A stretch of 64,000 bases of DNA from Candidatus Rokuibacteriota bacterium (GTDB taxonomy: Bacteria; Methylomirabilota; Methylomirabilia; Rokubacteriales; CSP1-6). Position numbers and translations under genes: made by a program. The notes below the pieces were generated by a model that was not told where the DNA came from, made no database searches, and saw only the letters and a program-made list of their open reading frames with translations. Each line of letters opens with the position of its first letter. Position 1 is the first letter of the stretch. Where the stretch lies: assembly GCA_016188005.1 (NCBI GenBank), contig JACPIQ010000095.1, positions 13,066-77,065 on the forward strand, written 5' to 3'. Shown here one piece after another: positions 2 through 5,144 of the stretch.

Positions 2-2584
2 GCTCGCGCGGCCTGGGTCTGGCGGCTCTGGGAGCGGGAGCGGGCGGCCCTGGACGCGGCGGGCCTGCGCGTGCTCTACGAGGAGATCGAGCGGCCGCTG
101 GTGCCCGTCCTCGCCGCCATGGAGCGCCACGGGATCGGCGTGGACCCGGAGCGGCTCACTGAGTTCTCCAAGGAGCTCGAGCGGAGCCTGGAGGCGCTCA
201 CCCGGGAGATCCACGCGCTGGCCGGGGAGGAGTTCAACCTCTCGTCGCCGAAGCAACTCGCCGCGATCCTCTTCGAGAAGCTCAAGCTGCCGCCGGTCAG
301 GAAGACCAAGACCGGCTATTCCACCGACGCCGATGTGCTGGAGAAGCTGGCCTTGGCGCACCCGCTGCCGGCAAAGCTCATCGAGCACCGGATCCTCGCC
401 AAGCTCAAGTCCACCTACGCGGATGCGCTCCCGACCCTGATCAATCACCGCACCGGCCGCATCCACACGTCGTTCAACCAGCTCGTGGCGGCCACGGGGA
501 GATTGTCGTGCCTTCCGGCGGGAAGCCTCGTGAACACTCAGCGCGGGCTGGTAGGGATAGAGGAGATCTGCCCGGGTGATCTCGTGCGCACCGCCCAGGG
601 ACCACGACGGGTTCTGGCCTGGGAGCGGACTGGCGTCAAGCCGGTTGTCGCCATACACCTGTCAAGCGGAGTCATCCTGCGGTGTAGCCCGAACCATACG
701 GTCCGAAGTCGGGGCGAGTGGAGAGAAGCCTCCCTTCTCGAGGTCGGCGATCCGGTCTACATGACATTCCGGGAGGGGTTGTTCGGTTCGCGCACAGAAC
801 TGAATGTGGAGATGACCGCCGCCTACAGGACGCGCAAGACGCCAGGCATGCCGGTGGAGTGGTCTGTCGGACTCGCTGAGCTGGTCGGCTACGCAATGGC
901 GGATGGGCACATTGCTCATAGCAACTACAATGGGAAGCCTGCCAAGCTCATCCTGGCCTTCGGCTGGCATGAAGGGGAACTGGTTCGGCACTTCAGCCGG
1001 GCAATCGTCCAGCTCTTCAACAAGTCTCCGAAGTACCGGGTGACTCGCACGTGTCCGGTCCTCGAGGTGTCCGGCGTGGACATCTGCGGGATGTTCGAGC
1101 AAGTCGGGGCTGGCGGGTCATCGAGGGTGATTCAGGTGCCGCCCTCCCTCTTCCGTGCCCCAGTGTCCATCGTGGCCGCATTCCTCAGGGGCTACTTCGA
1201 GGGAGATGGCACCGCGTCGAGCACCCTGTCAGTGAGATCCGTGTCGCGTGACATGCTGGAGGGAGTGCATCACCTGCTTGGGCTCTTCGGCATCCCCTCG
1301 GTCGTGCGAGATGGTGCCCCGGACCCGAGAGGCTACGCGCCCAGGCACACACTCTTCGTGGTCGGCGACCGCTCGAAGCGGGCGTTTCTTAGCCGCATCG
1401 GCTTCATCTCCCCGCGAAAGAGGTCTCAGCTTGAGGCACAGGTGGCTCGCCAGTCGGTCAAGAGCACCGCCGAGGTGCTGACCCTGCCGGAGCCCGCTGA
1501 GATGCTCAGGCTAAAGAGCCCTCTCTACGATGCTGGTCGCCAGGCGGGTGCCCACGGTCTCCAGGCGTTGTACGTGTTCATGCATAGGTTTGTCGCCGGA
1601 CAGTCCACCTGCACCCTGCCGCGTGCGGAGTGGATCGCAGACACACTCCGCGCAACCGGCGCGGAGATGCCATCGTTCCTCGGTGAGGCCGTGGCGGGTC
1701 AGTACTTCGAGGTGAAGGTGGCGGCGATCCAATGGGAGCCCAGTGTTCCCATGTTCGACATCGCCGTCGAGGGAGAGGAGTACGTTGCGGACGGGATAGT
1801 CGTCCACAATTCGTCGGCGCCAAACCTGCAGAACATTCCCATCCGCACCGAGCTCGGCCGGCGGATCCGCGCGGCCTTCGTCCCGGAGCCGGGCTGGCGC
1901 TTCGTGGCGGCTGACTACTCGCAGATCGAGCTGCGCATCCTGGCCCATGTCTCCGGCGAGGAGAGCCTCGTCGAGGCCTTCCGCCGGGGCGAGGACATCC
2001 ACCGGCGCACGGCCTCCGAGGTCTTCGGCGTGCCGCTGGCGGCCGTGACGCAGGAGCAGCGCGACGCGGCGAAGACGACGAACTTCTCGGTGATCTACGG
2101 CGTCACGGCCTTCGGGCTGTCCCGGGGCCTGGCCATCTCCCAGCAGGAGGCGCAGGAGTTCCTCGACCGCTTCTTCGCCCGCCACCCGAGGGTCAAGGCC
2201 TACCTCGAGCGCACCGTCGCCGAGGGGCGCGAGCAGGGCTGGGTCGCCACCCTCACCGGCCGGCGCCGCTGGCTACCCGAGATCAGGAGCGGCAACCCCA
2301 ACCTGCGCGGCTTCGCCGAGCGCATGGCGACCAATGCCCCCATCCAGGGCACCGCCGCCGACCTGATCAAGACCGCCATGGTCAGGCTCCACCGCGAGCT
2401 GGGCGCGCGCGGGCTCGAGAGTCGCATGCTGCTCCAGGTGCATGACGAGCTACTCTTCGAGGCGCCGGAGGCCGAGGTCCTGCCACTGGAGGCGCTTGCC
2501 GCCGAGGTGATGGAGTCCGCCATGACGCTGTCCGTCCCGCTCCGGGTGGACATCAAGGCGGGCACCGACTGGGCCCAGGTATGA
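2..2584 (+). CDS. polA: DNA polymerase I, C-terminal part (5' end outside window), interrupted by an intein
   Basis: Frame is open from the window start. Family-A motifs: HTSFNQLVAATGRLS..SSAPNLQNIP, ADYSQIELRILAH, AKTTNFSVIYG, LLQVHDELLFE. Confidence 0.97.
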   Translation, partial: ARAAWVWRLWERERAALDAAGLRVLYEEIERPLVPVLAAMERHGIGVDPERLTEFSKELERSLEALTREIHALAGEEFNLSSPKQLAAILFEKLKLPPVRKTKTGYSTDADVLEKLALAHPLPAKLIEHRILAKLKSTYADALPTLINHRTGRIHTSFNQLVAATGRLSCLPAGSLVNTQRGLVGIEEICPGDLVRTAQGPRRVLAWERTGVKPVVAIHLSSGVILRCSPNHTVRSRGEWREASLLEVGDPVYMTFREGLFGSRTELNVEMTAAYRTRKTPGMPVEWSVGLAELVGYAMADGHIAHSNYNGKPAKLILAFGWHEGELVRHFSRAIVQLFNKSPKYRVTRTCPVLEVSGVDICGMFEQVGAGGSSRVIQVPPSLFRAPVSIVAAFLRGYFEGDGTASSTLSVRSVSRDMLEGVHHLLGLFGIPSVVRDGAPDPRGYAPRHTLFVVGDRSKRAFLSRIGFISPRKRSQLEAQVARQSVKSTAEVLTLPEPAEMLRLKSPLYDAGRQAGAHGLQALYVFMHRFVAGQSTCTLPRAEWIADTLRATGAEMPSFLGEAVAGQYFEVKVAAIQWEPSVPMFDIAVEGEEYVADGIVVHNSSAPNLQNIPIRTELGRRIRAAFVPEPGWRFVAADYSQIELRILAHVSGEESLVEAFRRGEDIHRRTASEVFGVPLAAVTQEQRDAAKTTNFSVIYGVTAFGLSRGLAISQQEAQEFLDRFFARHPRVKAYLERTVAEGREQGWVATLTGRRRWLPEIRSGNPNLRGFAERMATNAPIQGTAADLIKTAMVRLHRELGARGLESRMLLQVHDELLFEAPEAEVLPLEALAAEVMESAMTLSVPLRVDIKAGTDWAQV
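509..1810 (+). mobile_element. Intein (434 aa) with LAGLIDADG homing endonuclease
   Basis: Begins CLPAGSLV (Cys1), block B SPNH, ends VADGIVVHN followed by Ser+1. LAGLIDADG-like motifs LVGYAMADG and FLRGYFEGDG. Excision restores TGRLS-SSAPNLQNIP. Confidence 0.95.
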
Positions 2585-4214: not shown

Positions 4215-5144
4215 CTACATCGGCCGGAAGGTGCGGTTCCAGTAGTCCCGGTTCTTGACGTCCACCTTGATCTTCTTCACTTCCTCGATGAACTCGGCCA
4301 TGATCTCGGCCTTCTTCTGGATGATGCGCTTGCCCTTCTCCGCGGAGGCGGTGAAGGGGTTGCCGGGGCGGCCGATGAGGCCGGTGTCGCTGTACTCCTG
4401 GTGGTCCATGGGCACCCAGGCCACGTCGAGACCGTTCATGGTGAGATAGGGCGAGCCATTGGCCTTGGTGAACTTGTCGCTCACTTCGGTGATCCACTTC
4501 GGCGGATGGGTCCAGTCCTTGTCCGTCCGGTCGAGGTGCACGATCTTCTTGCCGTACAGCCGCTCGAAGTACAGGCACTCGGCGGTCTCCACCTCGCTGC
4601 CGTGCCAGCCGGGCGCCTCCTCGGGCGGGTTCTCGATGAGCCCGGTGCCCTTGAGGAGCCCCGGCGCCGCCTCGGCGTCGTTGCGGTAGCAGCAGATGAA
4701 GGCGTCGGTCTCGTAGCGCAGTGCCCGCAGGGCCGGGTCCACCGCCTTCATGTTGGAGGTGTGCCCGGTGGCGAAGACCAGCTTGTTGAAGCCGTTGTGG
4801 ATGAGGGAGCGGCCGACCTCGTACAGGACGTTCTGATAGGTCGCGGCGCTGAGCGTGACCGTCCCCGACGCCATGCCCGCCGGATGGAGATGCTGCGGCG
4901 AGTACCCGAACGGGATGAGCTGGTAGTAGGGGACGCTGGCCAGCTCTGCGGCGAGCATGCAGGGCAGCTCGGTGGCGATGCTGTCCGTGCACACCGGCAG
5001 GTGCCGCCCGTGCTGCTCCGTGCTCCCCAGCGGGATGAGCACGACGTCCGTCTCCTCCAGCCACTCCCTCACGTCCAGGTAGCCGCACCGGAACAGGTTG
5101 TGGATCTTCTCCTTCTTGACCTCGCCCTTCTCCTGCCATTCCAT
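4215..5144 (-). CDS. Creatininase-family amidohydrolase (309 aa)
   Basis: LIPLGSTEQHGRHLPVCTDS, FGYSPQH and WHGSEVET family motifs. Start placed at MEWQEK within the longer 450-aa ORF. Confidence 0.85.
   Translation of the reverse strand: MEWQEKGEVKKEKIHNLFRCGYLDVREWLEETDVVLIPLGSTEQHGRHLPVCTDSIATELPCMLAAELASVPYYQLIPFGYSPQHLHPAGMASGTVTLSAATYQNVLYEVGRSLIHNGFNKLVFATGHTSNMKAVDPALRALRYETDAFICCYRNDAEAAPGLLKGTGLIENPPEEAPGWHGSEVETAECLYFERLYGKKIVHLDRTDKDWTHPPKWITEVSDKFTKANGSPYLTMNGLDVAWVPMDHQEYSDTGLIGRPGNPFTASAEKGKRIIQKKAEIMAEFIEEVKKIKVDVKNRDYWNRTFRPM

Follow-up and report, generated by a model that had tools for sequence, protein, structure and literature searches.

An intact, probably active LAGLIDADG intein in the chromosomal DNA polymerase I gene of an uncultured Methylomirabilota bacterium

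What interrupts the gene for DNA polymerase I (polA) in an uncultured groundwater member of the Methylomirabilota (Rokubacteria), and how might it have come to lie within one of the polymerase's conserved motifs? The locus is at the start of a 64,000-nucleotide stretch, here called the window, from Candidatus Rokuibacteriota assembly GCA_016188005.1 (contig JACPIQ010000095.1, positions 13,066 to 77,065). A forward-strand reading frame at positions 2 to 2584, open at the 5' edge of the window, encodes the C-terminal 860 residues of a Pol I precursor (P0002) whose full length is 1279 amino acids (aa). It reads ...NQLVAATGRLS, continues with a 434-aa insert (CLPAGSLVNT...YVADGIVVHN) and resumes with SSAPNLQNIPIRTEL. 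The insert is in frame over its 434 codons (509 to 1810) and splits the motif TGRLS/SSAPNLQN exactly (slashes mark junctions). The insert is a real, intact and probably active intein. Its parts, and those of the surrounding gene, are as follows.

Positions 2 to 508, forward strand: the final 169 codons of the polA N-extein, truncated at the 5' edge of the window, with TGRLS as the last motif.
Positions 494 to 508, forward strand: left half of the predicted homing site, ACGGGGAGATTGTCG, which encodes TGRLS, adjoins position 1811 in intein-less alleles and is presumably recognized by the endonuclease.
Positions 509 to 1810, forward strand: class-1 intein of 434 aa, from Cys1 (TGC, 509-511) to Asn434 (AAT, 1808-1810).
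Positions 509 to 808, forward strand: N-terminal half of the Hint splicing domain (residues 1-100), with block A (Cys1) and block B.
Positions 683 to 697, forward strand: block B, C59-S60-P-N-H63.
Positions 872 to 910, forward strand: first LAGLIDADG motif, LAELVGYAMADGH, with the catalytic-position Asp132 at 902-904.
Positions 1175 to 1210, forward strand: second LAGLIDADG motif, AAFLRGYFEGDG, with the catalytic-position Asp233 at 1205-1207.
Positions 1700 to 1810, forward strand: C-terminal part of the Hint domain (residues 398-434), with block F (PMFDIAV) and block G (GIVVHN).
Positions 1811 to 2584, forward strand: polA C-extein, 257 codons and stop, beginning with Ser+1 (TCG, 1811-1813) of SSAPNLQN and carrying the motifs DYSQIELR, KxxNFxxxYG and QVHDE.
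Positions 1811 to 1835, forward strand: right half of the predicted homing site, encoding SSAPNLQN, again with putative recognition by the endonuclease.

The host protein is PolA at the equivalog level, with 950 bits to NCBIfam PRK05755 (cut-off 720) and 904 bits to TIGR00593 (cut-off 600). Its domain set comprises 5'-3' exonuclease domains and DNA_pol_A, and no match to PF01612 (3'-5' exonuclease) is recorded for P0002. The Pfam DNA_pol_A match (E=5e-156) falls into two pieces, interrupted by the insert. By motif alignment, from which the numbering is transferred, the insertion point would correspond to the boundary between Ser670 and Ser671 of Escherichia coli Pol I. The TGRLSS motif includes Arg668 in the same numbering, which contacts the primer terminus. 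Given that the intein splits TGRLSS, and that the motif is incomplete until the intein is excised, the polymerase activity of Pol I is predicted to depend on splicing, as a first-pass annotation of the window had proposed.

The anatomy of the insert is that of a class-1 intein whose in-frame endonuclease remains under selection. Across 66 members of the polA intein family, to which all residue counts given here refer, Cys1, Ser60, His63, His433 and Asn434 are invariant (66/66). The LAGLIDADG aspartates lie in the motifs LVGYAMADG and FLRGYFEGDG and are almost as constant, with Asp132 in 65/66 members and Asp233 in 66/66; the non-catalytic Cys59 beside block B is retained in 65/66. Mean column conservation is 0.75 in the endonuclease core, against 0.72 and 0.73 in the two splicing halves, and the helical region at residues 301-397 is less conserved (0.54). 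Pfam LAGLIDADG_3 matches intein residues 221-298 above its cut-off (56.7 bits against 22.5; E=3e-15).

The predicted fold agrees with this anatomy. A profile of ten family members matches solved inteins by sequence, namely the VMA inteins, PI-MtuI, PI-PkoII, PI-PfuI and gp41-1, with the PI-MtuI and gp41-1 structures matched over residues 1-100. In the AlphaFold model of the intein (pLDDT 86.6, pTM 0.89), residues 1-100 and 398-434 form a beta-rich Hint domain, and the alpha/beta LAGLIDADG core and the helical region lie between them. The best Foldseek match is TliVMA (7qss; TM 0.68, E=2e-22), followed by PhoVMA, PI-PfuI, PI-PkoII and PI-SceI, and I-DmoI is matched over the endonuclease core with a TM by target of about 0.7. 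Nothing contradicts the identification as an intein. Given that the catalytic residues are intact and that the organism's Pol I must be functional, we infer that the intein splices.

The empty site is found both in close relatives and in an independent metagenome. L052, L053 and L054, the closest relatives with DNA examined (exteins 89-92% identical), have an uninterrupted TGRLSS and no intein, and the window's flanks joined from 508 to 1811 correspond to their sequence and to that of a contig from run X5. The X5 contig (record 17), from a different groundwater study, covers positions 1-508 and then directly 1811-1942, which is the exact empty site. The order polA-coaE-rsmA is common to the window, L052 and L053; L054 has polA-coaE, its locus ending inside coaE. 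The first-pass annotation, which had described a full-length homing-endonuclease intein in a chromosomal polA, is borne out by the intact motifs and by this synteny with intein-less relatives. Every detail that it gave, including the 434-aa insert, Cys1, the terminal His-Asn/Ser+1, the two LAGLIDADG motifs and the split of TGRLS/SSxPNLQN, agrees with the sequence coordinates.

The intein belongs to a family that occupies one position in polA in many bacteria. An intein-only query of a 5.8-billion-protein collection recovered about 75 PolA clusters with a homologous intein at 50-71% identity, with Methylomirabilota, Acetothermia, Pyrinomonadaceae and Patescibacteria among the named hosts. All relatives in this identity range lie in chromosomal bacterial polA with 5'-3' exonuclease domains, and in all 65 of the PolA proteins that span both junctions the site (TGR[LI]S/C...HN/S) is identical. 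A scan of GTDB, with one genome per species, found 20 genomes with an intein at the same polA site. Their labels are Methylomirabilota/Rokubacteria, Acidobacteriota, Chloroflexota (Anaerolineae, Oscillochloris, Roseiflexaceae), Acetothermia, Fraserbacteria, Rhodothermales/Rubrivirga/Bacteroidota and Saccharibacteria. In all, at least 65 PolA clusters and 20 species genomes, drawn from six or more phyla, have this polA site occupied. Within the 64-kb window, no further inteins of the polA family were found.

Several members of the family have unusual records. In L019:3001-4301 (Rokubacteria, 812-kb contig) the intein is 1301 bases long, which is not a multiple of three, and its translation contains 3 stops; this is probably an indel of a long-read assembly. 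The polA genes of L005 ('Candidatus Nitrosocosmicus sp.', an archaeon) and L001 ('Deferrimicrobiaceae') are nested in Methylomirabilota in both the extein and the intein trees, and the two contigs are probably mis-binned. In L010:4342-6375 (Acidobacteria) the frame after the intein runs for 678 codons against about 257 expected, which points to a missing polA stop, to fusion with the following gene or to a sequence error.

The distribution of the family within Methylomirabilota is patchy. With the spliced exteins as query, the 16 closest PolA proteins (85-92% identical, 836-873 aa), among them those of Rokubacteria GWC2_70_24, GWF2_70_14 and GWA2_70_23, are all without an intein; the analysis based its assignment of the window to Methylomirabilota/Rokubacteria on the names of these proteins. 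In maximum-likelihood trees (quick LG+G4 setting; 108 rows in the extein tree) the window is the sole intein carrier in a well-supported extein clade of 17. At least 14 changes between presence and absence are required on the extein tree, of which at least 9 are forced by starred (well-supported) branches. The exteins of P0004, with the intein, and P0190, without it, are 99.3% identical, and those of P0013 and P0162 are 96.4% identical. In some lineages, therefore, gain or loss of the intein is a very recent event. Because exteins 99.3% identical are found in carriers and non-carriers alike, the family must be mobile or have been so until recently, and the first-pass suggestion of a mobile allele is supported in that the window intein is a member of it.

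The intein tree itself follows the hosts. Separate intein and extein trees were built, and the intein tree recovers the Methylomirabilota, Acidobacteriota and Bacteroidota/Rhodothermota with starred support of 100, 95 and 100, respectively. An approximately unbiased (AU) test does not reject (p=0.228) a topology that groups the window intein with those of its extein clade, and incongruence between intein and extein as proof of horizontal transfer was dropped on this basis. The ratio of intein to extein distance falls from 2.7 to 1.2 within the phylum, where the intein is the faster, and is 0.55 between host groups, a value that could reflect either cross-phylum transfer or saturation, the two being inseparable here. 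For the window and P0013 the ratio is 1.34, matching the phylum-wide trend. The window intein stands alone on its branch, and its distance to each of the other Methylomirabilota inteins is 0.65-1.04 substitutions per site.

The junction flanks are 95-97% identical to L052, the nearest intein-less allele: within 60 bases on each side the window differs from L052 at 4 positions only, and from every sampled intein-bearing allele at about 8-37. A co-conversion tract was rejected because the flanks are far closer to L052 than to any sampled intein-bearing allele. Upstream of the intein, between about 242 and 480, the window shares 95-100% identity with L053 and only 82-90% with L052, and at the junction (to 508, and 1811-1850) the order is reversed, with identities of 0.95-0.97 to L052 and 0.78-0.82 to L053. 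This mosaic of identities suggests recombination of polA alleles near the insertion site, as opposed to co-conversion from a sampled intein-bearing allele.

At the insertion point, the intein-less L053 (about 4750-4790) shows 7 synonymous changes in 12 bases, reading GGA CGG CTG AGC/AGC where the window reads GGG AGA TTG TCG/TCG. L018, which bears the intein, has the same upstream codons as L053 except for the glycine codon GGC. The recoding in L053 could be a cleavage-resistant variant of the target or ordinary codon drift.

The intein also differs from its host in composition. The GC content at third codon positions (GC3) is 0.77 in the intein, whereas the exteins have 0.95, and coaE and rsmA 0.93. 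Intein GC3 is below extein GC3 in 14/14 other loci as well and roughly tracks the host level; across all 15 loci (the window and the inteins of L001-L018) the deficit is 0.06-0.32, whatever the GC of the host. The gap may result from constant re-introduction, from weaker selection on codons or from bias in the donor pool. The pattern fits an element that has long been resident in the lineage and has never become fully host-like in composition. Slightly lower GC upstream of the insert is seen in the intein-less L052 too.

Taking together the precursor architecture, catalytic residues, fold, empty site, conservation and patchiness, we consider it very probable that the insert is a self-excising, homing-capable class-1 intein with a two-motif LAGLIDADG endonuclease, resident in chromosomal polA and part of a long-established polA-specific family. 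In this scenario polA would be translated as a 1279-aa precursor, from which the Hint domain would excise itself by means of Cys1, Ser60 and His63 of block B, His433-Asn434 and Ser+1. The chemistry would be that of established inteins, with an N-S acyl shift at Cys1, transesterification to Ser+1, cyclization of Asn434 and an O-N shift. The joined exteins would form an 845-aa Pol I in which TGRLSS is restored. The freed LAGLIDADG enzyme may then cut intein-less polA across the sequence coding for TGRLS/SS, and repair would copy the intein into the cut allele (homing) whenever DNA exchange brings both alleles together. The polA-specific family is likely to have resided for a long time in Methylomirabilota and several other soil and groundwater phyla, mostly tracking its hosts and being repeatedly gained and lost.

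The other explanations concern where the insert came from and what it still does. Given that the window is metagenomic and that the insert has a lower GC than its flanks, an assembly chimera, or DNA of another organism in the metagenome, has to be considered; we regard the chance of this as negligible. A 1447-base contig, recovered from public groundwater runs X1 and X2, covers positions 406-1852 with both junctions and one base difference, although these runs are probably source samples of the window assembly and hence do not provide independent support. Because this contig spans both junctions and its depth (about 60 and 41) matches that of its neighbours on either side, a chimera was ruled out. 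The reading frame is moreover intact through the insert, and at least 65 independent PolA sequences show the same architecture. At position 848 the window has A and the X1/X2 contigs have T, changing Met114 (ATG) to Leu (TTG). Leucine is found at residue 114 in 5/9 other members of the ten-sequence alignment, and the difference may be either a strain variant or a matter of assembly consensus.

The first-pass annotation had suggested possible acquisition from a phage family-A polymerase gene. Inteins are frequent in phage polymerases, and the GC3 of the window intein is below that of its host. However, when 50,697 GenBank phage records were searched by tblastn with the intein, the best matches reached no more than 28% identity and fell in genes for methylases, terminases and helicases but in no polA, and a profile-seeded scan of IMG/VR viral contigs gave at most 26% identity. 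When an intein-bearing family-A polymerase was used as the tblastn query, 0 of the 2236 matching phage records covered its intein part. The relatives at 50-71% identity are, as described above, all chromosomal. A phage origin was rejected for the lack of any related intein in a phage polA among GenBank phages and IMG/VR contigs, and we consider it highly improbable.

A more serious contender is a resident relic that splices but whose endonuclease no longer homes, inherited vertically from an old Methylomirabilota ancestor, with repeated losses producing the patchiness. The recovery of host groups in the intein tree, the AU result, the ratio of 1.34 to P0013 in line with the phylum trend, the partial tracking of host GC3 and the lack of a co-conversion tract at the window flanks are all consistent with such a history. 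Yet the endonuclease core matches the splicing domain in conservation, with both aspartates kept across phyla, nearly identical exteins occur with and without the intein, and three or four separate precise losses would be required to leave the window as sole carrier in its clade of 17. On balance we think a relic unlikely. Far less plausible still is the co-option of the intein as a conditional switch that gates maturation of Pol I, for example by redox- or stress-dependent splicing. Other inteins of replication and repair proteins are documented to splice conditionally (PMC5874633), and the non-catalytic Cys59 next to block B could be read in this light. However, most close relatives do without the intein, and its frequent presence/absence polymorphism argues against a needed regulatory role.

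Some observations also weigh against an active, homing-capable intein. The Pfam Hint_2 and Intein_splicing matches, at 24 and 25 bits, are below their gathering scores of 28.4 and 35.8; block B is SxxH, with Ser in place of the Thr of most inteins; and a His at the usual block F position is not visible in the window intein. The block F His is not required in all inteins, and inteins without it can still splice (PMC4031507). Comparison of the junction flanks with the sampled intein-bearing alleles and L052 detected no co-conversion tract, and there is no close donor among the sampled inteins, the nearest being only 71% identical. For these two reasons, recent homing into the source genome is at most conjectural.

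It is nevertheless interesting to consider that the polA intein family may be homing at present, within and between uncultured soil and groundwater phyla and without the help of phages. We put this forward as a speculation that is doubtful on current evidence. If true, the target would be the near-universal DNA coding for TGRLSS-xPNLQN, which would explain why between phyla the inteins resemble one another more closely than do their exteins (distance ratio 0.55, as compared with 1.2-2.7 within the phylum). The window copy would have arrived fairly recently in a Rokubacteria clade that is otherwise free of the intein, and synonymous recoding of the target as in L053 would represent host escape from cleavage.

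Regardless of its present mobility, the window intein is an ordinary further member of the polA intein family, in a protein already known as an intein host. The rarity implied by the first-pass annotation did not hold up: bacterial Pol I is already listed as an intein host in two papers (PMC4760082, PMC5874633), and the family is widespread. The annotation had itself named the less novel outcome, and this is what we find, with a site common in bacterial polA and an intein tree that follows host groups. The significance is modest, and the understanding of inteins is unchanged. The locus documents that the main repair polymerase of an uncultured phylum carries an intein which is intact and probably active, and the analysis shows that in six or more phyla one polA site (Ser670/Ser671, E. 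coli numbering) is host to a single family of inteins. Given its presence/absence polymorphism, the family could be used as a marker of gene flow in soil and groundwater communities, and it may be a source of a new LAGLIDADG enzyme whose target is long and highly conserved.

Among known systems, the PolA inteins of earlier surveys share with the window the host protein, bacterial Pol I, and the type of element, a protein-splicing intein. Novikova et al. 2016 (PMC4760082) name the 'primary repair DNA polymerase I' among bacterial intein hosts, Table 1 of the review PMC5874633 has an entry for 'Bacterial DNA polymerase I (PolA)', and PolA was outside the top 15 intein hosts, with fewer than 12 inteins at the time. 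In the text available, the PolA inteins are given without site, sequence or taxon, so that a match to the site or family of the window is not demonstrable, and Methylomirabilota, the host phylum of the window, is not among the taxa named. Our literature search found no paper on a PolA intein by name, nor on inteins in Rokubacteria.

The solved inteins TliVMA and PhoVMA (7qss, 7qst), PI-PfuI (1dq3), PI-PkoII (2cw7) and PI-SceI (1vde) resemble the window intein in that a Hint domain is split by a two-motif LAGLIDADG endonuclease. They share the fold (Foldseek E=2e-22 to 2e-12, TM 0.5-0.68), the profile match, Cys1, His-Asn and a +1 nucleophile. In contrast, they are only 11-17% identical and reside in archaeal or yeast V-ATPase, ribonucleotide reductase and PolB, and the window intein differs in having SxxH in place of TxxH in block B and Ser as its +1 residue. 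Closer in position are P0079, P0080 and P0082 from metagenome-assembled genomes of Pyrinomonadaceae, which have an intein of the same architecture at the homologous motif (TGRFA/C...VHN/C). These inteins are 30-34% identical to that of the window by pairwise local alignment (25-29% by BLASTP), with Cys at +1, and their hosts are shorter family-A polymerases (about 1036-1053 aa) with a 3'-5' exonuclease domain and without 5'-3' exonuclease domains.

The DNA polymerase gene of Bacillus phage SPO1 carries a group I intron with a homing endonuclease at Asn675/Leu676 (PMC2814812). This element, like the polA intein, is a homing element in the same conserved motif of a family-A polymerase gene, and by the numbering transferred through motif alignment it would lie five codons downstream of the Ser670/Ser671 site. 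The two are unrelated in sequence and differ in kind, the one being an RNA-splicing intron in a phage and the other a protein-splicing intein in a chromosome. Given that both the SPO1 intron and the polA intein lie in this motif, it is a known landing zone for homing elements.

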